Shown: positions 2,068 to 36,110 of the stretch, piece after piece
Layout: every line of letters starts with the position of its first letter
How positions within the stretch are numbered: position 1 is the first letter of the stretch
Virus record (IMG/VR): IMGVR_UViG_3300045988_025400
Direction: 5' to 3' (one strand)
DNA: 41,551 nt
DNA from: a virus
Program-made: the position numbers and the translations under genes
The notes under the pieces: generated by a model
Databases searched by the model: none
What the model saw: only the letters and a program-made list of their open reading frames with translations
Told to the model about the DNA's origin: nothing

Positions 2068-3327
2068 CTACGCCCTCCCAATCACATAAGTTGCCGCATC
2101 TTTCTTCATCACCATATAACTGTCGCCGTTAATGATAAAATTGTTTCCCGCAACAGTTAGCGAGGATATTTCTGCGATAGCGGCGTACATCCTGTTCGTC
2201 CACAGCTTTTCGGATTGAACTTGCCCGGTTACGACCTTATTTGCATAGATCACATCCGCAAAGTAACCGTTGATTGTGCTATTACATGTGCTCGGGTAGA
2301 CTGACCCGGACGTGATATGCCTGTTCACAATGGCGTCTGTTCCGATCTGGCCGCCGCCAACAGAAAAGCTTGCAAGTCCCGCTCCGTCAAAATACCCAGC
2401 GTTGCCGCCGTAGTCGATGCTCCCAGCCTGCACCGTTCCCAAAAATTTGCCGCTGTAGGCGGTCAGATTGCCGCTGCTGTCAACCGTGAAATACTTGCCA
2501 AGCTGGATACCGTTTGGGCCAAAATAAATGCCGTTGGTATTCGTGCCGCCCCATGTCTGGCCGTTGGTACTCAGATATCCGTTTTTGATCGTCAAGCCAC
2601 CAATAACGCCGCTGGTGGCGGTGATTTTACCCGTAACACTCAGCCCGCTTTTATCGGCTTTCAGCACCGTACCGCCGTTGCTGGTCAGCGTCCATCCGTC
2701 CGCTGTCAGGCTCCATCCGAAACTCGCATTATCTCCGCCCTTGCGGTCTACCTTGGCACTGATTCCCCCGGCCTGAATGTTCAGCGCCGCCGTAAGAGAT
2801 TCGGTATCGCTCTCTCGCGCTTCGACCTCTGCCAGAATCTGATCGGCCATCACCGCGAGGCTTGCTTTTACTTCCTTGTGTTGCCGCTCAATTTTCCGCG
2901 TTGTTGGAGATTTGTACTCGTATTTATAGTTGATTTTTTCGCCGCCCGGCGCGGACAGATTGGCCGTATACAGCGGCCCATGAGAAACGTCTTTCTGGTA
3001 TATGCCACTGTATACGCTGCCCACCGATACGCCGTCCCCGATCTCGGCCGCTGGGTTCAGGTGCGCGTCACTGGCCGTATATGGTTGATATTGCCATCCT
3101 CGGATTTTGGCGAGAATGTCATTTGCCATCTTTTGCGATCCCCACGGGCATTCAAGCGTCAGCGTGCGGCCTGTGTCGCTTCCTGCGGAGTATTCCATCT
3201 CGTCAGAAACAACAATAGTCACGCCGGAATAGCCGTCAAATTCCTCCTGTTTTTCCAGCGAGGAGACAAACTTTCGCACATTCACAATGTCAGACAACGA
3301 TCCTGTCACCTCCAAACGTAATGGCAA
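2068..3327 (-). CDS. tail-tip / minor structural protein
   Basis: Roughly 410-aa ORF downstream of the tape measure with a beta-rich G/S/T repeat C-terminus (GLSVTGKITATSGVIGGLTIKNGYLSTNG...). The start is uncertain: TTG at 3327, or TTG at 3297 after GGAGGTGA. It overlaps the end of the upstream gene. Confidence 0.7.
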   Translation of the reverse strand: MPLRLEVTGSLSDIVNVRKFVSSLEKQEEFDGYSGVTIVVSDEMEYSAGSDTGRTLTLECPWGSQKMANDILAKIRGWQYQPYTASDAHLNPAAEIGDGVSVGSVYSGIYQKDVSHGPLYTANLSAPGGEKINYKYEYKSPTTRKIERQHKEVKASLAVMADQILAEVEARESDTESLTAALNIQAGGISAKVDRKGGDNASFGWSLTADGWTLTSNGGTVLKADKSGLSVTGKITATSGVIGGLTIKNGYLSTNGQTWGGTNTNGIYFGPNGIQLGKYFTVDSSGNLTAYSGKFLGTVQAGSIDYGGNAGYFDGAGLASFSVGGGQIGTDAIVNRHITSGSVYPSTCNSTINGYFADVIYANKVVTGQVQSEKLWTNRMYAAIAEISSLTVAGNNFIINGDSYMVMKKDAATYVIGRA

Positions 3328-4072
3328 ATCCTGCGTTGTCGGTCAGATACCGCGTCTCCTTCGGGATGTCCCAGAAGCAAACCAGCTGCAATTCGCCAGC
3401 TTCGCTCATGATAAAGCTGCCCGCGTACATGGCCGCGATATAGCCCAGATACTCCCGGCAGGAATATGTAGTGTTGTACTGCACAGGATACGCGGCGGTC
3501 ATCATGGCGGTGGTGCGGCGGTCAACTGTGACGTTCAGCGCCGCCGCGATTTCCTTCACAACGTCAATATCCTTCGCGGGCCACGAAAGCTTTGTGTTTG
3601 CCGGATAATCCTGCTCAGAGAACAAAAGCGCGTCATAGCCGTGGATTTGCAGCCACTTCACATCATCCTCGTCCGCGTCCTCATCGATGGAATCGGCAAA
3701 AAATATGCCCTGTTGCAGCCACTCCGAATGCCGCTCACCGTCTGTAAGCCGGGAATAGATGGAGATACGCGAAAGTCCCACGATCGTGCCGACAGGCTTC
3801 AGCATTTTTATATTGCACTCACGGCTGATGCATTCGCCTACCGTTGGCTCGCTGCCGCTAAATATGCCTCCGCTGGTGGACACGTCCGCCAGCATACTTT
3901 CACCATATCCGCCGTCAGCGCCGGAAGCGGACACCAGAATGCGCACGCCGCCGAAGGTGATGTAATCACCGCTCTTGTCGATCAGCAGGCCGCTGTCACC
4001 GATGGAAACTCTCGTTTCTACGGTGTAGTTCCCCGTTAGCAGCTCGCGATACAGGGCAGATGTTGCTTGCAT
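3290..4072 (-). CDS. tail component (baseplate/distal-tail region)
   Basis: ORF 3290..4078 trimmed to ATG 4072, preceded by TAAGGAG 5 nt upstream. It is the second gene after the tape measure. Confidence 0.7.
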   Translation of the reverse strand: MQATSALYRELLTGNYTVETRVSIGDSGLLIDKSGDYITFGGVRILVSASGADGGYGESMLADVSTSGGIFSGSEPTVGECISRECNIKMLKPVGTIVGLSRISIYSRLTDGERHSEWLQQGIFFADSIDEDADEDDVKWLQIHGYDALLFSEQDYPANTKLSWPAKDIDVVKEIAAALNVTVDRRTTAMMTAAYPVQYNTTYSCREYLGYIAAMYAGSFIMSEAGELQLVCFWDIPKETRYLTDNAGFAITFGGDRIVV

Positions 4073-12285: not shown

Positions 12286-12535
12286 CTTTCACCGCCTTTG
12301 TATCAACTTCGATCAATACCCCCGGTGCCGTGTAAAATCTTGCCGTATCTTCGCCGATTGCGCAAGTAACAATACCGCTTTCATTTTTCATAATTGCGCC
12401 ATTTACCCATTTGGGAATACCCCAAATTTTTCTCAATGTTCCAACAGGTATTAAATCGGGATTTACCACAGTAAATACTTCTATGTGGGAAAACGGAATG
12501 TGTTTATCCAGCTCTTTGATATAAGCACTACTCAT
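12272..12535 (-). CDS. hypothetical protein (87 aa), AT-rich insert in the head module
   Basis: ORF from the track. Visibly lower GC than its neighbours. ATG overlaps the end of the upstream gene. Confidence 0.5.
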   Translation of the reverse strand: MSSAYIKELDKHIPFSHIEVFTVVNPDLIPVGTLRKIWGIPKWVNGAIMKNESGIVTCAIGEDTARFYTAPGVLIEVDTKAVKDEPR

Positions 12536-12935
12536 ACAGCACCTTCATCCTTTCCCGCTGCTCCGGCAGCCCCGCCGCCTTGCTGAACGCCTTGTACTTG
12601 GCGTTCAGGCGTCGCAGTTTGATATTCACTGCCTGTTCTTCGTCTGTCAGCCCTGCGGCGTTGTACGCTGTTTTCTCACGCTTGAGCTTGCGTATGGTGC
12701 GCTCCACCTTGCGCTGCTCCTGCGTGGCTTCGTATGCCGTATAGGTCTTGCCCTCAAACGTACAGCCCAGACCATCGTCAATGTGGGCAAGCTGTTCGTC
12801 TGTGTAAGTGCGCTCACTTACGCCCTCAACAAACGGATAAAATGTATGCCGTACATCGACAGTTTGCCCCGCCAATGCCAGTAACGAAACCATATCCGCA
12901 AGTCTTTTCAAAGTCTGGGTAATCTGCCATAACAT
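12528..12935 (-). CDS. C-terminal fragment of the minor capsid / head-morphogenesis protein (Phage_min_cap2 / SPP1 gp7-like)
   Basis: Carries RHTFYPFVEGVSERTYTDEQLAHID...FEGKTYTAYEATQEQRKVERTIRKLKRE, the conserved C-terminal half of this family. Possible own start at ATG 12935 after AGAAAGGA, or TTG 12962. Confidence 0.75.
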   Translation of the reverse strand: MLWQITQTLKRLADMVSLLALAGQTVDVRHTFYPFVEGVSERTYTDEQLAHIDDGLGCTFEGKTYTAYEATQEQRKVERTIRKLKREKTAYNAAGLTDEEQAVNIKLRRLNAKYKAFSKAAGLPEQRERMKVLYE

Positions 12936-12978
12936 CACATCCTTTCTATCGTAAAGTCGCAAGTGGAATACACTTCTG

Positions 12979-13007
12979 TTGACTGTTATTTGATTATATG
13001 GTATAAT
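12979..13007 (+). promoter_or_regulatory. near-consensus sigma-70-type promoter of the homing endonuclease
   Basis: TTGACT (12979-12984), 17-nt spacer, TATAAT (13002-13007), then AAGAGGTGA RBS and ATG 13027. Confidence 0.65.
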
Positions 13008-13026
13008 TACATTAAGAGGTGATTAT

Positions 13027-13683
13027 ATGAGTAAATTAAACGATTTGACTGGAAAAAGATTTGGGAAATGGCAAGTATTACAAAGAGACGGGAATATTTT
13101 GCCAGTACGTTGGATATGCCGTTGTGATTGCGGCACAATTCGTAGTGTTTCAAGCGTTTCTTTGCGTGGTAGTTCGAAGTCATGCGGGTTGTGTTTACCT
13201 TACAGGGCGAAAAACCCGTTATACTTGCGGAAACATTCAAATCGGCTTTATCACGCATGGTCGGAAATGAAGCGCCGTTGCAATGGGAGATGCACCAATC
13301 ACCAATATTATGGTGATAAAGGCATTTCTTATTGTGAGGAATGGGAAGATTTTGACACTTTTGCAAAATGGTCTATCGAGAATGGCTATCACCCTGGTTT
13401 GGAAATTGACAGAATAAACGGCGACCTTGATTATTCCCCCCATAATTGCAGATGGGTATCTCATAAGAAAAATTCCAGAAACAGAAAAGCCAGGAAAAAT
13501 AATACTACTGGTGTTGCTGGTGTTTATCCAAGATTGCGAAAAGATGGCGTTGTTGTTTATCGCGCATCCATTGCAACAGATAACGGGAAAATCTATTTAG
13601 GAACTTTTTACACCATTGCAGATGCCGCTAAAGCCAGGCGAGAAGCAGAGCTAAAATATTGGGGATTTAACATCGGGGAGTAA
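13027..13683 (+). CDS. HNH homing endonuclease with C-terminal AP2 DNA-binding domain
   Basis: HNH_3-type motif LEIDRINGDLDYSPHNCRWVSHKKNSRN, plus an AP2-like region GVAGVYPRLRKDGVVVYRASIATDNGKIYLGTFYTIADAAKARREAELKYWG. Confidence 0.9.
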   Translation: MSKLNDLTGKRFGKWQVLQRDGNILPVRWICRCDCGTIRSVSSVSLRGSSKSCGLCLPYRAKNPLYLRKHSNRLYHAWSEMKRRCNGRCTNHQYYGDKGISYCEEWEDFDTFAKWSIENGYHPGLEIDRINGDLDYSPHNCRWVSHKKNSRNRKARKNNTTGVAGVYPRLRKDGVVVYRASIATDNGKIYLGTFYTIADAAKARREAELKYWGFNIGE

Positions 13684-13692
13684 TCCTCTATG

Positions 13693-14481
13693 TTATTTTT
13701 TATTCCACCGAAATACACGCCCCTGCCACTTCGTATGCGCTTCCCACCCATTTGGGCCATCTTTATCTCGTGCACCCGCGTGTGCCGATACTTCTACAAG
13801 GTCTGAACCAAGGTATTCCATTGACTGCTCCGCATATTTTTGATTAAGGGCATTTACGCCCGTCATGACAGCCCTGCGCACAGCTACGTCTACATGGTCA
13901 CGGTGTCCGCTCTCATAGTCCACTACCCGCAGGCCGCCGCTTGCAAGCTCCCTAACGGCGTCTTTGATGGCTTGCCCATAAGAAATAGCCCCGCTTTCTA
14001 CTTTCAACGTAGCCGCGTCTAACGCCCACTGGTAAGCCTTTGCCGGGGGGAGCATTGTGCGCCCCGCGTCTACCAAAAAGCCCATTGATGCGGTGATGTT
14101 GCGGAACACGTCCTGCGTCTGCCGTCTGATTGCGTCAATGGTGGTCGCATTCACCAGCACGTCAGGCTGTGTTACACGGGCAAGGTCTATGACCTCGGTG
14201 TAATACTTTTGGTTGCGCTTCACCACATCGTCTATCAGCTCATTCAGCTTTTTTTCGCTGATGCCGGTGGTCTGGCGTATGGCCTTTTCAATCTCTTTCA
14301 GATCGATGCCATGTGCCCGCAGCGCCTTGATGTCCTGCACCGTAATTTCGTTCAGCTCATCCCGCAGCTTGAGCCGGGAGCATATCTCCATCAGAAGTGC
14401 GTCCTCAAGACCACGGTACAGCTCTGCCAGTTCTTCCGGCATGGCATCCAGCAGTTCAGGGGGGAATGGATACTTGCTCAT
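13693..14481 (-). CDS. N-terminal fragment of the minor capsid / head-morphogenesis protein
   Basis: MSKYPFPPELLDAMPEELAELYRGLEDALL... through ...EVSAHAGARDKDGPNGWEAHTKWQGRVF, then 5 AT-rich codons (RWNKK) and a stop 10 nt from the endonuclease stop. ATG 14481 was chosen over TTG 14505. Confidence 0.8.
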   Translation of the reverse strand: MSKYPFPPELLDAMPEELAELYRGLEDALLMEICSRLKLRDELNEITVQDIKALRAHGIDLKEIEKAIRQTTGISEKKLNELIDDVVKRNQKYYTEVIDLARVTQPDVLVNATTIDAIRRQTQDVFRNITASMGFLVDAGRTMLPPAKAYQWALDAATLKVESGAISYGQAIKDAVRELASGGLRVVDYESGHRDHVDVAVRRAVMTGVNALNQKYAEQSMEYLGSDLVEVSAHAGARDKDGPNGWEAHTKWQGRVFRWNKK

Positions 14482-17711: not shown

Positions 17712-18905
17712 TCAATCGTCATTCAAAAGCACCGCTTTCTTCCCCGTAAACTTCTCCCACCGGTCAACAATGACATCGGCATACTTCGGATCATACTCCA
17801 TGCAGAAAGCGTGTCTGCCATTCTGCTCCGCTGCCATGATCGTTGTGCCGGACCCAGCGAACAGGTCAAGCACATTCTCGCCCGGCTTACTGGAGCACTG
17901 CATCTGGTAATCAAACAGCTTAATCGGCTTCATGGTCGGATGCTCCGCAGATTTGACAGGCTTATCAAAATTCAACACGGTTGTCTGTCTGCGGTTCTTG
18001 AAGAAATAATGCTTCTTACCTTCCGTCCATCCGTACAGACAAGGCTCGTGCGCTTCCTCTTCAATCTCGCTCTCACCATACAAGCAAGGCTCATGTTTCC
18101 ACTGGAAATCCTGTCTCCCCATCACAAGGGAGTTCTTCACCCAGATCAGGCACTGCCGGACACGCAGCATCGCATCTCTGCACGCGCCTCGGAAGTTATA
18201 CCCCTCGCTGTCTGCGTGCCAAATGTAAAATGGAGCGCCGGGTTTCATAACCATCGCCGCATTGGAAAACGCGTCCGTCAGGAACCGTCTAAATGCCGTA
18301 TCCTCCATATTGTCGTTCTTAATCTTCCCGGCGGTGCCCTGATAGTCCACATTGTACGGAGGGTCTGTGAGCAGCAAATCCATTTGTGCCCCCCCCACGA
18401 GCTTCTGTACGTCTGTCAAAGACGTGCTATCTCCGCACATAAGGCGATGGTCTCCAAGCTGGTACACATCGCCAAGTTTGCTCTTCGGCTCTGCTGGTAA
18501 AACAGGATCGTAGTTGTCCTCTACAACTGACGTGTCGAGTTCATCACGCAGCCCCCAATCAAAGTCAAACGCCGACAAATCCAGCCCAGGCAGTTCATCA
18601 GCCAGCAGGTCAAAGTCCCAATCGCTCTCGTTGCTCTTGTTGTCCACCAGCCGCAGGGCGTTTACCTGCTCCGGTGTCAGATCATCCACACAGACGCACG
18701 GCACTTCTTCCATGCCCAGCTTCTTTGCCGCCATAGCGCGGCAGTGGCCGATGACAATAACACCCTCTCGGTCAATCACAATCGGCTGCACGAACCCGTA
18801 CTGTTTAATGCTTTCGGCCACATTGTTGATTTGCCGTCTGTCGTGCTTCTTGGCATTTGCAGCATACGGCATAATATCCGCCAGCCGCTTGTTTTTTACT
18901 TCCAT
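17712..18905 (-). CDS. ParB-like nuclease domain fused to a beta-class amino (N6-A/N4-C) DNA methyltransferase
   Basis: N-terminal ParB/Srx-like region (...VIGHCRAMAAKKLG...). DPPY (motif IV) precedes FAGSGTT (motif I). Contains an in-frame G8 tract (18389-18396) and a duplicated HEPCLYG segment. Confidence 0.9.
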   Translation of the reverse strand: MEVKNKRLADIMPYAANAKKHDRRQINNVAESIKQYGFVQPIVIDREGVIVIGHCRAMAAKKLGMEEVPCVCVDDLTPEQVNALRLVDNKSNESDWDFDLLADELPGLDLSAFDFDWGLRDELDTSVVEDNYDPVLPAEPKSKLGDVYQLGDHRLMCGDSTSLTDVQKLVGGAQMDLLLTDPPYNVDYQGTAGKIKNDNMEDTAFRRFLTDAFSNAAMVMKPGAPFYIWHADSEGYNFRGACRDAMLRVRQCLIWVKNSLVMGRQDFQWKHEPCLYGESEIEEEAHEPCLYGWTEGKKHYFFKNRRQTTVLNFDKPVKSAEHPTMKPIKLFDYQMQCSSKPGENVLDLFAGSGTTIMAAEQNGRHAFCMEYDPKYADVIVDRWEKFTGKKAVLLNDD

Positions 18906-19401
18906 GTGGCCTCCTTTGCCTGACGCAGCGGCCTCCCACCACTGGCCTTTGTCATTGCCGCGTCCTTCCCCGGCTTTCGCCTCGCCTGTATTCCATGTCT
19001 CCCCTGGGTCACATTTTTAAGAGGTGCGGGAAGTCCTGTTTTATGTAAGCAGACTATTTGGGCCGCATCCCTTACAGCGGTCTGCCAGCGCATCGCCTGT
19101 TGTTTTACACAATCGGTCGGGTGCCACCACGCATCCATACTGTCCTACACAGCGGCTTTGTCCTAAGACAACCGCCACCACACCGCATCCACGCCTCGGA
19201 TTTCTTTCGGCACGCCGGCACCCGAACCAACCACGGACTTTTCAGCCCTGCGCCGGTACGTCGGTCGCATCCGTTTCTTCATTCACAGCCGGAGCCAGCC
19301 AAATAATTATTATTCGTCCTGCCGCTTTCGTACAGCGCACAGGAAAGACCACTTCCGCAGGCTTACGCTCCGTGCGGCTGCGAGGCAAGGGGCCACGCCT
19401 A
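18906..19401 (-). ncRNA. candidate large structured non-coding RNA (class unassigned; ROOL/GOLLD-like context)
   Basis: About 500 nt with no credible ORF, lying downstream (minus strand) of a tRNA-like element. GC-rich short helices with GNRA caps (e.g. GGC-GAAA-GCC at 18972-18981) and four copies of GGATGCG. Boundaries are not determined. Confidence 0.3.
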
Positions 19402-19480
19402 TGGTGCAGACAGCAAGATTTGAACTTGCGAACCCGAAAATTCTTCATATCGGAGCTGTATCCACCCAGCTTCTGCCTGC
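19402..19480 (-). tRNA. tRNA-like gene with encoded CCA and a non-canonical 8-nt anticodon loop
   Basis: Minus strand: GCAGGCA GA AGCT GGGTGGATAC AGCT C CGATA TGAAGAAT TTTCG GGTTC GCAAG TTCAAAT CTTGC TGTCTGC A CCA. The acceptor, D and T arms are canonical. The anticodon stem has a U-U mismatch, the loop is 8 nt, and position 8 is G. Confidence 0.55.
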
Positions 19481-19621
19481 ATATTGCTCCCTCCGGGCGG
19501 AGCCGAAGCCCCGCCCATCAGGAAAAGAAGGGGGAAAAGAAAAAGAATGGAGATGCAGAGTTCGCCCCTGCACCCCCACGTTATCACATCTTTTTTTGTT
19601 GTTGCATTTCGTTGTGCAACA

Positions 19622-19846
19622 TCACCTAATTTCTGCGTTTACATACGGTGCATACTCTTCTTTTATCGCACATTCTTTCAGCGGGCAGTACCGGCAGTTT
19701 TTAGCAAAGGGGCACTCGCGCCGTTCTGCTCTGGATATACAGCGAGATACAGTGGATGTGCTTACACCAAAATGCCGTGCAATCGTGCTCATGCGCCATC
19801 CGCACTCAAAGTATAGTCTCAAGTATTCGACCGTCTGCTCTTTCAC
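19622..19846 (-). CDS. HTH DNA-binding protein with Cys-rich C-terminus (possible late-gene regulator)
   Basis: GTG 19846 after GGAGGAGGTGG, overlapping the upstream stop (GTGA). HTH region: MSTIARHFGVSTSTVSRCISRAERR. Confidence 0.65.
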   Translation of the reverse strand: MKEQTVEYLRLYFECGWRMSTIARHFGVSTSTVSRCISRAERRECPFAKNCRYCPLKECAIKEEYAPYVNAEIR

Positions 19847-20037
19847 CCTACCACCTCCTCCGGGAAGAATGTCTCCCGCACCCCGCCGCACTCCGCCACG
19901 ATGTACCGCCCCTTCGGATGCACGTACACCACCGTGCCCTTGCGGATGGGGAACCGCTTTTCATCGTTGGCGCCGGAGCCGGGGTACTCGCTCGGCAGCG
20001 TCATAAACCGCGCCCGGATCGTGTCACCCTTCTGCAT
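19843..20037 (-). CDS. hypothetical protein (64 aa)
   Basis: ORF from the track, in an overlapping chain with its neighbours. Confidence 0.55.
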   Translation of the reverse strand: MQKGDTIRARFMTLPSEYPGSGANDEKRFPIRKGTVVYVHPKGRYIVAECGGVRETFFPEEVVG

Positions 20038-20347
20038 CGCCGCCGTCCTTTTTCTCGCCGTAGGAGCAGAAGTCGTCCGGCTCTACACACACCGCATCGC
20101 CGGAATACCCGCGGGCATTTGTCTTTGGCTCCGTATGTAGGTAACACAAACCGTTTTGGTAGTTGCGATAGTGCTTGCAGTCCTTGCAGCGCACCACCGG
20201 GGCAACATCAGCGGCAGGCTGTGCGTCTACCTCCCATATCACATCTTCAAGCAGCCCACAGCCTTGTTCGTCATCAACATCCGCATGAGCATCCCGCCAA
20301 TTCTCTAAAACTTTGCGTAACGCTTCCCTGTCAATGTATTCAGCCAT
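20024..20347 (-). CDS. hypothetical Cys-containing phage protein (107 aa)
   Basis: Trimmed to ATG 20347 (MAEYIDREAL...) after GGAGGG. ATG overlaps the upstream stop. Confidence 0.6.
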   Translation of the reverse strand: MAEYIDREALRKVLENWRDAHADVDDEQGCGLLEDVIWEVDAQPAADVAPVVRCKDCKHYRNYQNGLCYLHTEPKTNARGYSGDAVCVEPDDFCSYGEKKDGGDAEG

Positions 20348-20516
20348 TGTCAGCCCTCCTGTTCCACTTTTCGACGATAAATTTGGGTTCGCTATATACG
20401 CCACTTTCAAAATCACACTCTGGACAGTATATATAGCACTCTTCTGGGCTGTTGCCATCTACTGTTTCAAGTATTGCTTCTCCGCCGCAGAACGGGCAAG
20501 GTTTCAGGTCATACAT
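20340..20516 (-). CDS. Lar-like restriction-alleviation family zinc-ribbon protein
   Basis: MYDLKPCPFCGGEAILETV...CPECDFESG...KWNRR is the characteristic Lar-family pattern. ATG 20516 overlaps the upstream stop. Confidence 0.65.
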   Translation of the reverse strand: MYDLKPCPFCGGEAILETVDGNSPEECYIYCPECDFESGVYSEPKFIVEKWNRRADNG

Positions 20517-21060
20517 CCTTCGTCGCCTCCACATAGCACCAGCTCTGGGGCGGGCGGCGAAGCGGCAAAGCCCCATTGTTGCAGATACCGTTGTTGTTGC
20601 TATACATGGCGCAGGCCTCACAGGATAGGTCATTAGGGCAAGCCCGCCGGAACTCCGTCAAGTCCCGCGGCTGGTCATAAATGCACAAGTCGGACATATG
20701 CCAGCCGTAACAACGCCCCTTATCGCCGATATAAGCTATAATTTCTGACTGAGTTAAGCACGTCGCGGGGGAAAAGGCGGCATTTGTTGTACTACTTAAC
20801 TCGCCGCCATCGTATGCAATAAGGGCGATTCTTTCACAGGTAAACTCCCCGATGACCTTGCCGCCGCCGTAAAACTGTGGCATTGGATAGTCCGTCGCGA
20901 TGAAGTCCTCGTGCGGATATTTTGGCAGCGTGCAGTAGATGTAACATTTGAACGGCGTTTTCAACTTCGGCTTGGTCTTGCGGACTTCAATAGTCTTCTC
21001 GCCGCTGGCAATCTTTTCACACCACTTCTGGCGAATGCTTATAAGTACGGCCTTGCTCAT
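20509..21060 (-). CDS. ASCH-domain protein
   Basis: Trimmed to ATG 21060 (GGAAGGAGGAAAAGGC RBS). N-terminus MSKAVLISIRQKWCEKIASGEKTIEVRKTKPK is typical of ASCH. Confidence 0.7.
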   Translation of the reverse strand: MSKAVLISIRQKWCEKIASGEKTIEVRKTKPKLKTPFKCYIYCTLPKYPHEDFIATDYPMPQFYGGGKVIGEFTCERIALIAYDGGELSSTTNAAFSPATCLTQSEIIAYIGDKGRCYGWHMSDLCIYDQPRDLTEFRRACPNDLSCEACAMYSNNNGICNNGALPLRRPPQSWCYVEATKDV

Positions 21061-21088
21061 GCCTTTTCCTCCTTCCACGGCGTATCCA

Positions 21089-21439
21089 TCACTCCACCTC
21101 CTGCATCCAGAACTCGCGGCGACAATCGGAGCACCCCTGGCGCAAACAATCGGCGGTAGCCCGTATATCAGCAACAATACGCTTAGGGCACAGGATCAAA
21201 AGCCCGGTGTTATCAATATCAGCCTGAGGATACTGCTCCAAAAACACGCTCTGCCGCGTCTTGCACGGGTGTGCAGCAGACCACTCCTCGACCAGCTCGA
21301 CAATCTCCTCCGCGCTCTCCTGTGAACGCTCCTTAGCAGGTACAGTACAAAAGTCAGTCTTGTATACAGGGCAATCCTCGCACTCATCAACCTTTGTGCA
21401 CATACGCAGATATTCCTTTACAAACTTCACAGCATCCAT
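21089..21439 (-). CDS. hypothetical Cys-rich protein
   Basis: Trimmed to ATG 21439, which overlaps the upstream TGA. Confidence 0.55.
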   Translation of the reverse strand: MDAVKFVKEYLRMCTKVDECEDCPVYKTDFCTVPAKERSQESAEEIVELVEEWSAAHPCKTRQSVFLEQYPQADIDNTGLLILCPKRIVADIRATADCLRQGCSDCRREFWMQEVE

Positions 21440-21834
21440 CACATTTCCCTCCATTTGCACCCGTCACAGGCGCCCTCGTGTGCTTGTTTGTACTTCCCGC
21501 AGTATTGGCACAGCTCGTTTTTCATGGCGTGCAATTCACTTTGCTCCTCCTCCACCGCTACGGTCTTGGCAAACTGCGCCAGTCCATCACTCATGTCCGC
21601 GATTTGCGCATCCCGCCGCAAAACGGTGTCCCGCAGGGCGGCGTTGGCCTGCAACAGTGCCTCGATGTGCCGCTGCTGGTTCTCGATCAGGTCAGCGGCG
21701 GCAACATTTTTCTTTGTGCAGCAGTCGCCCAGTTCGTCGCTCGTGCTGAAAAACGGGCAATCCTTACTGCACTCAAATTCGCCATTGAAACTGGCACAGC
21801 ACCGCAGCGCGGTCACGATCTCGTCCCTTTTCAT
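21439..21834 (-). CDS. hypothetical Cys-rich / coiled-coil protein
   Basis: 131-aa ORF. GAGGAGGAA RBS lies within the end of the MTase gene. Confidence 0.6.
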   Translation of the reverse strand: MKRDEIVTALRCCASFNGEFECSKDCPFFSTSDELGDCCTKKNVAAADLIENQQRHIEALLQANAALRDTVLRRDAQIADMSDGLAQFAKTVAVEEEQSELHAMKNELCQYCGKYKQAHEGACDGCKWREM

Positions 21835-21835
21835 G

Positions 21836-23664
21836 TCATTCCTCCTCTGGAAAATGTTTCTTCGTCACGGCGATGGGAAACGGCTCGATCTCGCTTGCCC
21901 ACCGCGCCGTGCCTTTACCGTGTATGCGTTCCCAGATCAGCGGGAACCCTGCGATGCCATCAAATAAGCTACCCAGCGTCGCGTCCTCCGGCAAATACCG
22001 CGCCATACGCCGCAGCATCCAGTCCCAGAAGGGCAGGGCGATGGAGTTGCCCAGTGCCTTGTACCGTGGGCTGTCCGCGTCCTTGTGCTTCTTTCCCTTT
22101 TCGTCTGTCCACTCGCCGATGTCCGTCCAGTAGTCAGGGAATCCTTGCAGCCGTTCACATTCCATCGGCGTCAGTCGGCGCACGACCATGTGTGTGATAG
22201 CAAGGTCTGTGCTGTCCTTAAAGTCCCGTTGCTTGCAACTGCTTGCAACCTCGGCGGCGCGGTAATCTCCAAAACCATTCATCTGGTATGTAAGCGGCAC
22301 TTGGTTTCCGCCCGTGCCCATTCTCGCCTGCAATGCTGGGACTTGCTCCCCGCACTCGCGGATGACGTCACAGGCGTGTGTCATGTCCAGCGCCACCACC
22401 GCTATGCCGCCCTGATTTTTGCTTGGGTCTGGATTTGTCGTGTCGAGAGTTTTTGCAATTTCGGTTTCTCGGCAACCACTGTTGGGGTTTTTGCTTTTCA
22501 TGCTGTTGCTGGCGAGACTGTCAAAGCTATACGCGCACAGTACGCTGTCCCGCGCCATACCGCCGTTCTCATTGGCATTCAGACTGTGCCATACGCCATC
22601 CTGATCGTACACTCTTGCGCTCTGCGCGTCCCACGGATTCATGCACATTACCCCGTGGCGGTCGCCGGCGGTCAGCGTGGGGGATGGGTCGCCTTCTTTG
22701 CCGATGCCAAGACCGTTGCCGCTGCCATCGTGGTTGCGGCTCTCTCCGCCGCCCTGCCATCTGGTGGCTTTGTCGTTGATGGGGATAGCCGTTGCAAATA
22801 CGCCATGCGAATGTGCGGCAGAAATGGTGTTCGCCGGGTCACCCGGTTCTCCTACGCCGAATCCTGTTCCGCGCCCTAACGCTTTGCAGCGCGTAGCCAC
22901 CATCAGGTTAATAGGCGTGGGCGTGAAAATCGTCTGATCGTTGCCCGTACCAAGCGTTCCGCTTTTCTCCGTCTGCACTAACGCGCCTTTTCCTCCTCCG
23001 TCACAGCCCCCCCCTGATGCGGACTGCATAAGAAGCACCGCTTTCAGCCGCTCCGGCAGGTCCTTCCCCCGCCGCTCCGCTCTCCGTAATATCCCCAGAC
23101 ACGCTTTCGCGGTCAAACGGTATTTGGGCAGCGGATTCACCTCCAAAATCTGCGACAACCGAGATTCTTCGGCGACGCTGTGGGGTCCCCAGACGGATAA
23201 CATTTCCTGTACGGCTGTCTCGGATGGTTTTTCCCCAGTCTTTAGCGTCGTGAGTTCGCCAAGCGATAGACCACCCATCACCGTCGATGGCTCCTGCTTT
23301 TGTCCATTTCCACTTTTCCGGCAGTCCAGATAGAGAAAATCCTGGTTCTGCGATACGCGCAATTTCTTCCAGCACGGCGTGGAAGTCCCGTCCTCTGTTG
23401 CTGCTGAATGCTCCGACAACGTTCTCCCAAACGAGAAACCGAGGTCGGACCATGTCACCTGTCCGTCCATTCCGTTTTTCCTCCGCTCTCATTTCTTTTA
23501 CGATGCGCACCTGCTCCATAAACAAGCCGCTTCGCGCTCCCGCCAAACCGGCGCGTTTTCCGGCGATGGATAGATCCTGTCTAACAAGGTGAACCACCTG
23601 TAATACACCAAATGGGTTCAATCTCTGCCCCATTTATTTTCGTAATATCGCCTAAATGTTTCAC
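21836..23664 (-). pseudogene. circularly permuted DNA (cytosine-5) methyltransferase interrupted by two frame changes
   Basis: Segment 1 (23584-23664; GTG start after AGGAGGTG): KHLGDITKINGAEIEPIWCITGGSPC, then TAG. Segment 2 (frame +1, from 23579): QDLSIAGKRAGL..FLVWENV..PQRRRRISVVADFGG..RIRGG, ending at the G8 tract. Segment 3 (frame -1, to 21836): CDGGGKGALVQ...RRLTPMECERLQGFPDYW..YKALGNS..., then ATLGSLFDGIAGFPL (motif I) and WASEIEPFPIAVTKKHFPEEE (motif II). Confidence 0.75.
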
Positions 23665-23676
23665 CTAAATCACCTC

Positions 23677-23952
23677 CTAATCTCCAAACACAACGCCGCA
23701 CTCGTCCTTCAGCACGTCCTTGATGTGCTTCCGCTTGATGCGGCCTTCGTTGATCTCCTGCGTGATCTTTTCCAAGCATTCGTACAGATACGCGATACTG
23801 TGGGTGTCCCGGCTGTCCGGCGTCTCCTCCTGGACGTGCCAGCCGCACTTGTCGATCAGCGCCATCGCCACCAGGTCCATGCACTCCTGCGTGCCTCTGC
23901 GCTTGCCGTCCATAAAAATCCGGTCGTCCCGGCTCAAATGCTGCTTGCCCAT
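23677..23952 (-). CDS. hypothetical protein (91 aa)
   Basis: ORF from the track, lying between the two MTase genes. Its stop lies inside the RBS of the C5-MTase start. Confidence 0.6.
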   Translation of the reverse strand: MGKQHLSRDDRIFMDGKRRGTQECMDLVAMALIDKCGWHVQEETPDSRDTHSIAYLYECLEKITQEINEGRIKRKHIKDVLKDECGVVFGD

Positions 23953-23955
23953 GTG

Positions 23956-24563
23956 TCACCACAACCTTTCCTGCGCCGTATGCTCCGCAAACCGCTGCTC
24001 TTGCAGCCGGAAGTATGCCGGATCGATCTCGCATCCAACAAACTCAAAGCCGAGGTTATAGGCCGCTATTCTGCTGCTCCCGCTACCCAGATGCGTGTCC
24101 AAAATGCGCCAGCCTTCTTTGGCGTACTTCATCAGCAGCCACTCGTACAATGCCACGGGCTTTTGCGTTGGATGTATTCTTTTCCCCTTTTCTTGCAACG
24201 GCGAGTAATAAAAAGTTCTCGCGGATGTATCGAAAGAAGTCCATGCAAATTCGCAAGATGCAAAAGAAATATCTTCCGGCTGCTTTTTGTCCCAAATAAC
24301 AAATCCCCTACAAGGCGGAAGATCGTAATAATTCCCCCCCATATTATTTGGTTTTTGCTGCATCTTTTTAATTCGCTAAAATACACATCACCCGGAGTCG
24401 CATCGTCCCATCTTGTTTCAGTGGCATTGTATTTTTTCAATCGACCACTATCATGAATGCTAATTCCATACGGCGGGTCTACGATGGCAAGGTCAAACGC
24501 CTTGTCCGGCAGCGTCCGCATATACTCCATGCAGTCGGTGTTTATCGCAATCTGCTTGCCCAT
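23956..24563 (-). pseudogene. beta-class N6-adenine/N4-cytosine DNA methyltransferase, frame broken at a G7 tract
   Basis: Frame 1: MGKQIAINTDCMEYMRTLPDKAFDLAIVDPPYG...NQIIWGG. Frame 2: (GG)NYYDLPPCRGFVIWDKK...HPTQKPVALYEWLL...DTHLGSGSS. The junction is TGGGGGGGAAT (7 G; plus-strand C7 at 24334-24340). One extra G would give ...IIWGGNYYDLPP... in frame. Confidence 0.8.
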
Positions 24564-24757
24564 CACTCGCCCTCCTCCAGACGCACCACCTCATAGCATC
24601 CGTAGCTGCCGACGTGCCGGAACGCCTTGCAGATACCCACACGGACATTCTGATATTTCCGACCGGACAACTGCGCCAGCTCCGCCGTGGTCGTACCCCA
24701 CCAGCGGGGCAGGCGGTACTTATCGCGGGTGACTATCATGTAGACTGTCATGCTCAC
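24563..24757 (-). CDS. hypothetical small protein, possibly HTH
   Basis: 64-aa ORF. Its TGA overlaps the MTase ATG. Confidence 0.5.
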   Translation of the reverse strand: MSMTVYMIVTRDKYRLPRWWGTTTAELAQLSGRKYQNVRVGICKAFRHVGSYGCYEVVRLEEGE

Positions 24758-26415: not shown

Positions 26416-26556
26416 TTAGTCCATAAGGGGGGGATCCTTCTTCATCGCCCCGATGACGTAAACGCCGCGCTCCTTGTCCAGCGCCACCTGTACGATGTTT
26501 TCCAGGTGCCGATTCTGCCGCCGCAGACCCTTGATCTCATCCTGCATCTTTCCCAT
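26416..26556 (-). CDS. small coiled-coil protein (46 aa)
   Basis: MGKMQDEIKGLRRQNRHLENIVQVALDKERGVYVIGAMKKDPPLMD. Contains an in-frame homopolymer (plus-strand G7 at 26427-26433). Below the track cutoff. Confidence 0.4.
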   Translation of the reverse strand: MGKMQDEIKGLRRQNRHLENIVQVALDKERGVYVIGAMKKDPPLMD

Positions 26557-32960: not shown

Positions 32961-33090
32961 TTCTCTCCCCTTTCTTAATTTGACATATTATTTTCTCGGT
33001 GTACAACTAAGTTAGTACACTTATAGTTACGCACAAGCTGTTTGTTGCCCACAAATGGGCAACACATTGAAAATTTTTTGGGGGTCTAAA

Positions 33091-33987
33091 ATGAAAAGGC
33101 ATCGTAAACTAAAGGCTGTAGCTATTTTTGTTCTCACTTTGTTTTTTACCATTATAGCGTTGTTGCTTATTCCTTCCGCAAGTGTTCCACAAGCAGACGG
33201 AACGGCAATGCTTACTTATGGCGCGGCCGTAGCTCTTATTATTGTCCCGTCCGCGTTTACAGCACTGTTTGTGTGGCTTGATAAGCGCGTTGAAAAAGCA
33301 AGCTTGCCGCAAGAGCCTTTTATTACTGCCAATGGCGAAGCCCACGATCCGATTATACCGGATGCAATAAAAGTGGTCATGGAAACCGGGCAAGCGTCCG
33401 TTTCTATGCTGCAGCGTAAGCTCAATCTTGGGTATTCTCAAGCCTTACGATTGATCGACGAGATGGAAACGCTGGGTATTGTCGGCCCGTTCAAAGGTTC
33501 TCGGCCTCGGCAAATATTGCTTACGCGGTCACAATGCGAAGCGCTTATTCCAACGCTTAAAATTGCTCGCGCAAATTCATGTTTCGCGCCTTGTGAAGCA
33601 AGCAATCCGGAAGCAGAGCTATACAAAGTAGATGGAATGGAAGGGCACGATTTTGAGTATTGGTGTGCAGACCTTCTAAAGAAAAACGGTTTCTCCAATG
33701 TTGAAGTCACACGTGGCAGCGGAGATCAGGGCGTTGACGTCCTTGCTAAATTTGGCGATGCCAAATATGCCATTCAATGTAAGTGCTATTCTTTCGATTT
33801 AGGAAACAAGCCGGTGCAGGAAGTAAATGCTGGAAAAGCATTTTACCGTTGTCATATTGGGGTTGTAATGACAAATAGGTATTTTACAGCAGGCGCGAAA
33901 GAAATTGCGGAAGCAACCGGCGTTTTGCTGTGGGATAGGGATACGCTTAAGCGCTTGATTAAAAATGGGGGGCGTAATGATGATTAA
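33091..33987 (+). CDS. membrane-anchored FtsK-gamma winged-helix / Mrr-type (PD-(D/E)xK) restriction endonuclease fusion
   Basis: Two TM helices (AVAIFVLTLFFTIIALLLIP and AAVALIIVPSAFTALFVWL). FtsK-gamma pattern ASVSMLQRKLNLGYSQALRLIDEMETLGIVGPFKGSRPRQIL. Mrr_cat pattern GHDFEYWCADLLKKNGF..GSGDQGVDVLA..YAIQCKCY. Start is ATG 33091 (GGGGG RBS) rather than 33055. Confidence 0.85.
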   Translation: MKRHRKLKAVAIFVLTLFFTIIALLLIPSASVPQADGTAMLTYGAAVALIIVPSAFTALFVWLDKRVEKASLPQEPFITANGEAHDPIIPDAIKVVMETGQASVSMLQRKLNLGYSQALRLIDEMETLGIVGPFKGSRPRQILLTRSQCEALIPTLKIARANSCFAPCEASNPEAELYKVDGMEGHDFEYWCADLLKKNGFSNVEVTRGSGDQGVDVLAKFGDAKYAIQCKCYSFDLGNKPVQEVNAGKAFYRCHIGVVMTNRYFTAGAKEIAEATGVLLWDRDTLKRLIKNGGRNDD

Positions 33988-34791: not shown

Positions 34792-36110
34792 GTGTAGTAT
34801 TGCGGGCAGCATTATACCCGCGTGTGTCCACAGAAGAGCAGAAAAAGTTTGGCTTGTCTATTCACGATCAGCAGAACGACCTCGAAAAATACGCCAAAGC
34901 CCACAATATGAAGGTGGTAGGCGTTTTCCAGGATGCCGGGTTTTCCGCCAGAAAGAAGATTGAAAAGCGTCCCGCCATGCTTCAACTGCTGGAAGCCGTA
35001 AAGCATGATGAGGTAGACATTATTCTTGTCACAAAGCTGGACAGGTGGTTTCGTAACATCGGTGAATATTACAAGGTGCAGGAAATTCTTGAAGCCCACA
35101 ACGTGTCGTGGAAAACGATTTATGAGGACTATGACACGTCTACAGCCGCAGGCCGGTTGAAGATCAACATCATGCTTGCCGTAGCACAGGACGAAGCTGA
35201 CCGCGCCAGTGAACGCATAAAAAAAGTGCTTGATGCAAAAAAAGATCGAAATGAGGTTTGCACCGGTCATCTGCCAAAAGGCTACAAAATCGAAGGAAAA
35301 TTTGCTGTTATAGACAAAGAAGCGGAGCCGGTTATACGGAGATATTTTTCTACATTTTTGGAAACCGGCTCCATAACAAAAGCGATGGACGCAGTACCGG
35401 AATTAAAACTTAAATACCAAACGGCCAGCCAAATGTTGGACAACACAGGATACATGGGAGACTGGCACGGGATAAAATTACCCCCGTATTTAACACCGCA
35501 GGAATTTCAGCGTGTGCAAGACTTACGCACGAGGGTGACGCGAAAATCCCCTTACAATCGAACGTATATTTTCTCGGGGGTAATAGTCTGCGGGGAATGC
35601 GGACGCAGAATGACAGGGCATCCGTCTCCACGCCCAAGCGGGGCGTGCTCTTACTCTTACTATTGTCAAGGGTCTGCCCAGAGAAAAGGATGCAACAACG
35701 GTAATTTTACTGTCGAATGGAAAATCGAAGATTATCTCTTGTCGACAATAGACGAGCAGATACAGATCAAATTGCAAGCCAAGCCGCGGCAAGAACCCAA
35801 AGTAAACCAAGATGTGCAATTAAAGACTTTACAAAAAAAACTATCCAAGTTGTCAGAGTTATATATAGACGACATGATTTCAAAGTCGGACTACTCAAAA
35901 AAGTATGCAGAACTGACATCACAAATGGATGAGATTACACAAGTAAAATCACAAAGCCGCGCACCAGAAGAAATTGCAACCTTATTTTCCGCAGGATGGC
36001 AAGAAATATACAAACAACTTAACAAAGAAAATAAACAAGCATTTTGGAAACTCAAAATAAAAGAAATCCGGCTATACAAAGACCGCCGGATTGAATTTGA
36101 TTTTCTGTAA
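34788..36110 (+). CDS. int: large serine recombinase (phage integrase)
   Basis: Resolvase catalytic domain AALYPRVSTEEQ...DRWFRN, a recombinase domain, a zinc ribbon CGECGRRM...C, and a C-terminal coiled coil. Confidence 0.92.
   Translation: MSVVLRAALYPRVSTEEQKKFGLSIHDQQNDLEKYAKAHNMKVVGVFQDAGFSARKKIEKRPAMLQLLEAVKHDEVDIILVTKLDRWFRNIGEYYKVQEILEAHNVSWKTIYEDYDTSTAAGRLKINIMLAVAQDEADRASERIKKVLDAKKDRNEVCTGHLPKGYKIEGKFAVIDKEAEPVIRRYFSTFLETGSITKAMDAVPELKLKYQTASQMLDNTGYMGDWHGIKLPPYLTPQEFQRVQDLRTRVTRKSPYNRTYIFSGVIVCGECGRRMTGHPSPRPSGACSYSYYCQGSAQRKGCNNGNFTVEWKIEDYLLSTIDEQIQIKLQAKPRQEPKVNQDVQLKTLQKKLSKLSELYIDDMISKSDYSKKYAELTSQMDEITQVKSQSRAPEEIATLFSAGWQEIYKQLNKENKQAFWKLKIKEIRLYKDRRIEFDFL

Follow-up and report, generated by a model that had tools for sequence, protein, structure and literature searches.

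The 41,551-nt viral sequence IMGVR_UViG_3300045988_025400 (the window, i.e. the whole stretch of DNA that was analysed) carries three genes for DNA methyltransferases (MTases), namely a ParB-domain fusion (ParB-MTase), a C5-type enzyme (C5-MTase) and an N6-type enzyme (N6-MTase), each with a run of seven or eight guanines in its coding strand. It seems probable, with some reservation, that these poly-G tracts are real, slippage-prone sites in a very common temperate phage of gut Oscillospiraceae, and that the tract in the C5-MTase gene selects the reading frame in which the C-terminal half of the enzyme is made. The architecture of this C5 locus is the most interesting element of the system. 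A gut-metagenome contig in ENA (ERZ27229875 k119_278373, 41,551 nt) equals the window rotated by 5,606 nt, and the window probably represents a whole phage genome, either circular or terminally redundant. Because the closest genomic relative of the ParB-MTase (88%) was found in a Dysosmobacter metagenome-assembled genome (MAG), in a genome contig scan that yielded MAGs only and no isolates, the host is probably a member of the gut Oscillospiraceae. An identical ParB-MTase protein is present in 159 blocks of the assembly collection, and the phage group is therefore very common in human gut metagenomes.

The tracts were located by a homopolymer scan and by translation of the open reading frames (ORFs) over the whole window, with Pfam for the gene identities (Table 1). 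On the plus strand they appear as C8, C8 and C7, i.e. as G runs on the coding minus strand, and in all three cases the homopolymer lies inside the coding region. A preliminary description, made from the sequence alone, had reported the same three runs, and its readings of them were confirmed by translation: the ParB-MTase passes its tract in frame (..LVGGAQ..), the C5 frame ends at ..RIRGGL-stop and would read ..RIRGGCDGGGKGALVQ.. with one G fewer, and the N6-MTase needs one G more to read ..NQIIWGGNYYDLPP... It was also right that 26427-26433 is the only further G/C run of at least seven in the window. Its list of A/T runs needed correction, since the A8 run lies at 35833-35840 (not 35834-35841) and three further runs of seven (19591-97, 31808-14 and 35237-43) were missing. 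What it overlooked are a 4-nt TAGA break in the C5-MTase gene and an intact 544-aa ORF that results from the G8 state, both of which are discussed below. Three of the four G/C runs of seven or more lie inside the ~ 8.7% of the window that codes for MTases (binomial P ~ 0.0025, calculated post hoc).

Table 1 Positions of the methyltransferase genes, poly-G tracts and C5 locus elements in the window
Feature	Position	Strand	Remarks
ParB-MTase gene (ParB_N + N6/N4 DNA methyltransferase), 397 aa	17712..18905	-	Pfam PF02195 + PF01555; in frame
G8 tract of ParB-MTase	18389..18396	-	junction of ParB domain and MTase domain (..LV GG AQ M..); in frame
ORF-B fused to C-terminal half, 544 aa	21836..23470	-	+1 'shadow' region, f1 domain, target recognition domain modules, motifs IX, X, I, II
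Motifs I (LFDGIAGF) and II (ASEIEPF)	21839..21990	-	C-terminal end of C5-MTase
ORF-A remainder, f0	23001..23579	-	QDLS.., ENV (motif VI), QRRRR (motif VIII), linker; PF00145
G8 tract of C5-MTase	23007..23014	-	meeting point of f0, f1 and the C-terminal half
f1 domain	23018..23272	-	read in the +1 frame of ORF-A; GExP..SRLSQILE..PxKYxLxAKACxGILRRAERRGKDLPxxLKxVL
GGAGG ribosome-binding site of ORF-B	23480..23484	-	9 nt upstream of the ATG at 23468-23470
TAGA 4-nt insertion	23580..23583	-	directly after the catalytic Cys codon, inside the PCQ motif
ORF-A first piece	23584..23664	-	GTG start, motif III (KHLGDIT), motif IV to the catalytic Cys (GGSPC)
N6/N4 adenine-type MTase gene, 202 aa if intact	23956..24566	-	PF01555 on the repaired protein
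G7 tract of N6-MTase	24334..24340	-	-1 state; predicted OFF

A comparison of tract lengths in related phage genomes, as the preliminary description had proposed, showed that all three tracts vary and that the frame breaks exactly there. The relatives are IMG/VR contigs, i.e. consensus sequences, and flank identities of pairs were measured over 600-800 nt. At all three sites, near-identical relatives (99-100% over the flanks) are set apart only by the length of the tract, and thereby in frame. For the ParB tract, the window (G8) and L127 (G9) are 100% identical over 800 nt of flanks, and further pairs are L132/L103 (100%) and L134/L099 (99.9%). The C5 tract differs within L081/L222 (100%), L034/L010/L055 (99.8%), L079/L018 (99.3%) and L041/L007 (99.3%), and the N6 tract between the window and both L058 and L165-167 (99.7%), within L205/L183 (99.8%) and within L204/L170 (100%); the nearest neighbours of the window at this last tract (99.7% over 600 nt of flanks) carry G8. 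Control runs in the same loci are constant (T6 in 44/44, T6 in 6/6 and T7 in 5/5), as is the G7 run outside the MTases (window 26427-26433), which is unchanged in 8/8 relatives. This pattern of polymorphism matches the evidence that is accepted for variation mediated by simple sequence repeats in comparative phasome studies.

The preliminary description had kept G/C-specific sequencing error as a real alternative, in which case the true genes would all be in frame. The window does stem from a short-read metagenome assembly (k119_278373), and homopolymers are classic error sites. However, the states of the window recur in independent samples, which shows that they did not arise by faulty assembly: L334 encodes exactly the same 544-aa protein as the C5 G8 state, the combination of TAGA and G8 returns in L341 (a genome with different target recognition domain (TRD) modules), and at least 15 contigs of different sequencing runs carry the exact frameshifted 143-aa product of the N6 G7 state, beside variously configured C5 genes. 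Similarly, G9 in the ParB tract occurs in seven contigs of several backgrounds, and the frame that is joined by the C5 G8 state is also kept at junctions without a slippery run (G5, GGGGTGGG). The structural genes for the portal, the terminase large subunit (TerL) and the major capsid protein (MCP) are intact and 99-100% identical to those of relatives, so that a generally faulty assembly and a decaying prophage could both be ruled out. With near-identical pairs that differ, controls that stay constant and states that recur independently, sequencing or assembly error is answered as an alternative and has become very improbable.

For the ParB-MTase (Pfam PF01555 match, E = 2e-23, an N6/N4 MTase) and the N6-MTase, a simple ON/OFF reading as in the preliminary description holds, with the former predicted to be ON and the latter OFF in the window. 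Both enzymes have the DPPY motif and an AdoMet-binding region in agreement with the family model. The ParB tract is in frame as cgtG8cac or gtaG7cac in 36 loci and out of frame in ~ 10 of 50 (G9 seven times, gtaG8, gttG8 and gtaG6), with ~ 9 insertions against a single deletion. The ParB G8 is followed after 5 nt by an in-frame ATG, which is replaced by ATC in about a quarter of the close relatives, and one could speculate that the +1 state splits ParB_N from the MTase domain rather than abolishing the MTase. The N6 tract lies inside a single catalytic domain (..IIWGGNYY..) and is in frame as G8 followed by aat (10 loci) or as G7 followed by aaat (31 loci). Out-of-frame states make up ~ 5 of 50 loci, i.e. 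the G7 plus aat of the window, G8 plus aaat, G9 plus aat and, twice, GCG7. In the window the gene is split into the ORFs 24132-24566 and 23956-24363, of which the repaired protein is recognised as an N6/N4 MTase (PF01555, E = 8e-15), while the G7 state gives a 143-aa product with an out-of-frame tail; the natural reading of this sequence is that the N6-MTase is OFF. The intact 202-aa form is nevertheless in the majority (clusters with 204 and 301 members). Distant homologs of both the ParB-MTase and the N6-MTase encode the same Gly-Gly by mixed codons, without a tract.

The C5-MTase requires a different reading, since its G8 state is in frame with a conserved overlapping ORF, so that the simple OFF state implied by 'two out of frame' does not apply to it, whereas the tracts as heritable hot spots of length change in a phage lineage stand. 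Motifs I, IV (PCQ), VI (ENV), VIII (QRR), IX and X are all present (Pfam PF00145, alignment to M.HhaI and translations), in the order III-IV-VI-VIII, TRDs, IX-X, I-II. The relatives all start with M-(K/V)-HLGDI (motif III) and end with LFDGIxGF..ASEIExFPIAVTK (motifs I-II), and if the last 47 residues of the window's protein are joined before the first 173, they align in one stretch to residues 17-113 of M.HhaI across the join. Judged by this motif order, the C5-MTase (window 21836-23664, relatives L004-L083) is a natural circular permutant with its break between motifs II and III. Such a break corresponds to the Type B topology, which was the most active among engineered permutants and absent among natural enzymes, all of which were of Type H (PMC5944983). 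The natural Type H permutants (M.BssHII, M.Alw26I, M2.Eco31I, M.Esp3I and M2.BsaI) likewise have a permuted C5 motif order, but the present enzyme, with its break between II and III, falls outside this M.BssHII-like group.

In the relatives, the C5 tract ranges from G5 to G9 within the conserved context atgcagtccgcatcaG(n)ctgtgacgg. For the class of the window, G7 joins the C-terminal half (TRDs, IX, X, I and II) to the catalytic frame (f0), while the frame at +1 to it (f1) ends in ..AVTEEEKAR-stop; G8 joins the C-terminal half to f1, while f0 stops two codons after the tract. The G8 state thus contains two ORFs, namely ORF-A with motifs III-VIII and ORF-B, a fusion of an f1 domain with the TRDs and motifs IX, X, I and II. 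Classification of the C-terminal half over 82 unique C5 loci gave 58 loci with fusion to f0 (25 of them without a tract), 16 with fusion to f1 and one (L051) with the third frame; three were broken elsewhere, and motif IX was not located in four. The f1 register also occurs with non-slippery junctions (G5 in L041, GGGGtGGG in L072) as well as with a junction of the G11 type, and the peptides SASGGCD, SASGGGCD, SASGGGGCD, SASGVGCD and SASGGEGCD at the junction all keep it. Because the f1 register recurs, with non-slippery junctions and full-cover database clusters as well, the G8 state is a common and heritable architecture, fixed in places, and not a broken gene.

The overlapping ORF-B is conserved. 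In 77/77 loci no stop interrupts f1 for at least 125 codons, across the region that codes for motifs V-VIII, whereas the same span in the +2 frame has a median of 8 stops and the +1 frames of other genes meet a stop about every 20 codons. An ATG is found 88-107 codons upstream of the f1 SQILE in 75/77 loci, and it is preceded by a perfect GGAGG ribosome-binding site (RBS) in 62/77 relatives, through two different ORF-A codon contexts. From PCQ to ~ +420 nt, variability peaks at codon position 3 of f0, with ratios of synonymous to nonsynonymous changes in f0 of 75:23, 50:38 and 24:14. From ~ +440 nt onwards (440-560 nt after PCQ) the signal moves to f1, with 42:40 against 15:62 in f0, which indicates purifying selection on f1, but not on f0, over the ~ 120 nt that precede the tract. 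A profile of the 80-aa f1 domain matched 4,345 representative clusters (2,952 at E ≤ 1e-10). Many of these proteins, which are 260-630 aa long, carry the domain at residues ~ 65-145 and continue with TRD modules and the PF00145 motifs IX-X, i.e. the same architecture as the window's ORF-B. The 544-aa ORF is covered over its full length (100%) by dozens of clusters of 480-600 aa and by the majority of the 120 best-ranked clusters. No family in Pfam or PHROGs matched the f1 peptide, and the f1 profile gave only chance-level matches among PDB sequences. At a second G-rich run between ENV and motif VII (TGGGGAGGG(G)), a 1-nt difference in L066, L069 and P0132 joins the catalytic frame to the f1 domain, skipping motif VIII. 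A 605-aa f1-fused homolog (P0176) has an HNH_3 endonuclease and a helix-turn-helix domain inserted in its C-terminal half.

Upstream of this region, the TAGA insertion introduces a stop and a +1 shift into the catalytic frame, and the window has no uninterrupted catalytic frame through Pro-Cys-Gln. Removing one G from the C5 tract, as the preliminary description had done, does let the catalytic frame continue past the tract, but it does not restore a canonical enzyme, since the TAGA insertion remains. An insertion at the same position (TAGA or, in three cases, TAGC) is found in 33 of 80 aligned relatives. It lies within a near-invariant, AT-rich module of ~ 95 nt, and it has been kept in L036 although the upstream sequence has diverged. 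Reassignment of the stop codon (TAG = Gln at TGT-TAG) was considered and rejected, as the frame discontinues past the TAG and other genes end normally at TAG; likewise, a consensus scan showed no promoter-like site that would make the module a promoter insertion. At 14 loci (including L004, L018, L037, L041, L051, L072, L074, L079, L084, L032, L040 and L081), ATA stands at the expected start codon of ORF-A, ideally spaced from GGAGG, which is either a non-canonical start of very low strength or a further means of silencing the catalytic frame. More than 20 diverged loci keep the frame after TAGA open over 460-650 codons. In the TAGA lineages, ORF-A is still enriched in synonymous changes, yet relaxed (32:19 versus 98:25), and the f1 segment shows clear purifying selection (31:16). 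The TAGA could represent a null allele spread by recombination, an upstream ORF with an effect on ORF-B, or recoding. Because ORF-A is also broken by TAGA, the C5 locus of the window probably makes no 5-methylcytosine on its own. The selection on f1, the relaxation of ORF-A and the open frame after TAGA together suggest that the ORF-B protein may have a function of its own, or may work with a catalytic fragment supplied in trans. Two further peculiarities of this gene were observed among the relatives. An intein directly follows the ENV motif in L047 (positions 2990-4000, IMGVR_UViG_3300030250_000015), within a single ORF of 927 aa and with the marks C-FAGNTLV.., the LAGLIDADG-like LGRYIADGS and ..VVAHN|C, and an extra G7 run is present ~ 1.74-1.89 kb after PCQ in L015, L018, L049, L058 and L079, in or just past the C-terminal half.

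Recoding at the G run offers another explanation of the two frames, in which the ribosome or RNA polymerase slips on the run, perhaps together with a +1 shift at TGT-TAG-A, and full-length enzyme is still made; the overlapping frame would then stem from a programmed frameshift product. It would fit that selection passes from one frame (f0) to the other (f1) inside a single gene, a pattern expected of programmed frameshifting, that the TAGA allele is conserved with coding-type conservation on both flanks, and that the upstream substitutions in L036 are mostly synonymous in the first frame. However, CCU-UGU-UAG-A is not a recognisable +1 slippery site, nor was a canonical one seen in the zone where f0 changes to f1; a +1 shift would insert one residue, Arg or Ser, into the PCQ motif behind its catalytic Cys; and ORF-B, with its own RBS and ATG, needs no frameshift. 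The length differences moreover exist at the DNA level, and Rfam and tRNA scans of the window gave no match. We therefore regard recoding as improbable.

Under the favoured reading of slippage-prone tracts, slipped-strand mispairing would be the cause of the length changes, which would occur often on an evolutionary time scale and leave the phage population with mixed methylase states. In the ParB-MTase and N6-MTase, a change of one nucleotide in either direction would truncate the enzyme. In the C5-MTase, G7 would place the C-terminal half on the catalytic frame and give a single-chain enzyme, and G8 would place it on ORF-B and give the 544-aa protein plus a separate catalytic fragment. The benefit may be one of bet-hedging against two kinds of restriction system, those that need methylated DNA and those that attack it. 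A stronger version of this would be that in a widespread gut-phage family of Type B C5-MTases with two overlapping frames the hypermutable poly-G tract reversibly toggles between a single-chain enzyme and either a split enzyme or a non-catalytic protein that binds TRD targets and S-adenosylmethionine, and that together with the ON/OFF switches of the ParB-MTase and N6-MTase this hedges methylation, which we put forward as a tentative and rather doubtful possibility.

Split C5-MTases may provide a model for the G8 state. Engineered M.MpeI fragments [192-61] and [62-279], i.e. [TRD-IX-X-I-II] plus [III-VIII], complement each other, and engineered C5-MTases split in this way regain activity by fragment complementation (PMC5944983); M.AquI, with its alpha and beta chains, is cited there as a natural two-subunit C5-MTase. 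In M.AquI and in the fragments of M.MpeI, M.SssI and M.BspRI, the division likewise lies in the variable region after motif VIII, and the composition of Mpe[192-61] plus Mpe[62-279] is the same as that of the ORF-B-fused C-terminal half plus ORF-A. In the G8 state, the present locus has two ORFs of fitting composition, with an RBS and ATG for ORF-B, although ORF-A is broken in the window. It differs in that the putative split or the fused state hangs on a mutable G tract and in that the predicted second chain starts from an ORF that overlaps the first by ~ 450 nt in the +1 frame. By analogy, the C5 tract may switch the enzyme between a single-chain and a split form.

A number of points weigh against this picture. 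The number of G7+ runs in the window is at the level of chance (6 overlapping matches versus 6.8 ± 3.1 in shuffles), IMG/VR contigs are not independent samples of evolution, and the polymorphism could reflect slower mutation with drift in dispensable genes. Since the ParB tract also shows more insertions than deletions, an insertion bias of G7-G8 tracts is conceivable for the C5 tract too, and the scarcity of the third frame (a single locus) could reflect this bias and not selection. That ORF-B is translated is something we infer from the RBS, the ATG and the selection signature. AlphaFold, run on the 544-aa ORF with 54 homologs, gave a mean predicted local distance difference test (pLDDT) score of 33 and provided no fold-level support for the f1 domain or the split enzyme; only f1 residues ~ 104-151 reached a pLDDT of 54-66, as helices, with the N-terminal 'shadow' part predicted to be disordered.

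Plain decay, i.e. the MTases being dispensable prophage cargo whose homopolymers are the first to be hit by neutral inactivation, without any adaptive role, would account for part of these observations. It agrees with the widespread compromise of the C5 catalytic frame by TAGA (33 loci) and ATA (14), with the somewhat relaxed ORF-A in the TAGA lineages, with the widespread and stable OFF allele of the N6-MTase, and with a count of G runs that does not exceed chance. On the other hand, evidence against decay comes from the long frame that stays open after TAGA in diverged loci and from a +1 ORF that is open throughout, with conserved RBS and ATG and with purifying selection that is clearer in the TAGA lineages. 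Frame breaks are furthermore nearly confined to the tracts and to TAGA, and intact forms of the N6-MTase and ParB-MTase dominate. The preliminary description had named fixed out-of-frame lengths with further degradation in relatives as the sign of plain pseudogenes, and instead the lengths vary and additional degradation is rare. Decay as the whole explanation is therefore unlikely, although less so than recoding, and for the lesions in the N6-MTase and ORF-A neutral decay must be taken seriously as a rival.

In bacteria, the switching of MTases through homopolymers is a classic phenomenon (phasevarions, as in Type III mod and Type I hsd). A poly-G tract in Type I hsdS leads to alternative proteins through phase-variable truncation or fusion of specificity subunits; it likewise changes which segments are joined while expression is kept, but it belongs to a different enzyme class, and hsdS is not known to involve an additional conserved ORF that overlaps the gene and starts independently. 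In Salmonella mod, a +1 shift in poly-G inactivates the gene (PMC3152355), and phase-variable DNA methyltransferases have been reviewed (PMC12707154). The bacterial enzymes share with the present ones a homopolymer in the MTase coding region, frame-shifting changes in its length and relatives that differ. Here, however, the MTases are orphans on a phage genome outside a chromosomal restriction-modification system: they lie in the phage replication/packaging module without an adjacent cognate restriction gene, so that this is not a phasevarion, and no regulon is implied. Compared with bacterial ON/OFF loci, a single tract here selects between two coding frames, as known from consensus contigs.

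Phage-borne contingency loci, i.e. hypermutable homopolymers that generate subpopulations, are known as well. T-even (T2/T4) phage contingency loci were recently reported. For the receptor-binding genes of Campylobacter phages, hypermutable poly-G tracts are established, and a preprint (10.1101/2025.10.21.683753) cites their G7-11 tracts as well as a poly-G tract in a methylase of Bordetella phage BPP-1, which was not pursued there. These cases (Fletchervirus receptor-binding genes, T2/T4 and BPP-1) concern host-range or anti-defence genes, whereas here all three MTases of one phage are involved and are polymorphic across gut metagenomes. A full-text literature search found no phage described as carrying tracts in all its methylases, no C5-MTase in which a tract selects the frame and no Type B permutant among natural enzymes.

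Methylases are a main means by which phages counter restriction-modification, but they are a liability towards methylation-dependent nucleases. If the reading of slippage-prone tracts is true, slippery tracts in all methylase genes could carry a standing mix of methylation states into each host, and the idea of the contingency locus would widen from bacterial surface and restriction-modification genes and phage receptor-binding proteins to the epigenetic armour of phages. The C5 locus provides a natural example of the Type B permutation, and within its methylase gene it keeps a second, overlapping ORF that is long and conserved. Its annotation by gene callers is inconsistent, with the result that thousands of database 'proteins' are alternative-frame products of one locus. 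Since the phage is so common in gut metagenomes, the hypothesis can be tested with existing read sets and long-read methylomes.

Elsewhere in the window, a plus-strand gene (33055-33987) encodes a 310-aa protein with an FtsK_gamma winged helix and an Mrr_cat nuclease domain, a family that includes methylation-dependent restriction enzymes. A phage-encoded Mrr-like nuclease could be relevant to why the phage's own methylases are switchable; just two contigs were informative on this gene in relation to the MTase states, and both carry the TAGA allele. Upstream of the ParB-MTase and terminase genes, ~ 700 nt (18906-19620) contain no convincing ORF and a GC-rich hairpin (gggcggggcttcggctccgccc) without an Rfam or tRNA match, and this could be a packaging or regulatory region. 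The minor-capsid gene (Phage_min_cap2, window 12534-14481), a single 577-aa ORF in relatives, is split here, not by a homopolymer frameshift but by an insertion of ~ 0.8 kb, with a 218-aa ORF on the opposite strand (13027-13683, plus) that has no Pfam match; the C-terminal third of the relatives' minor-capsid protein is unmatched in the window.

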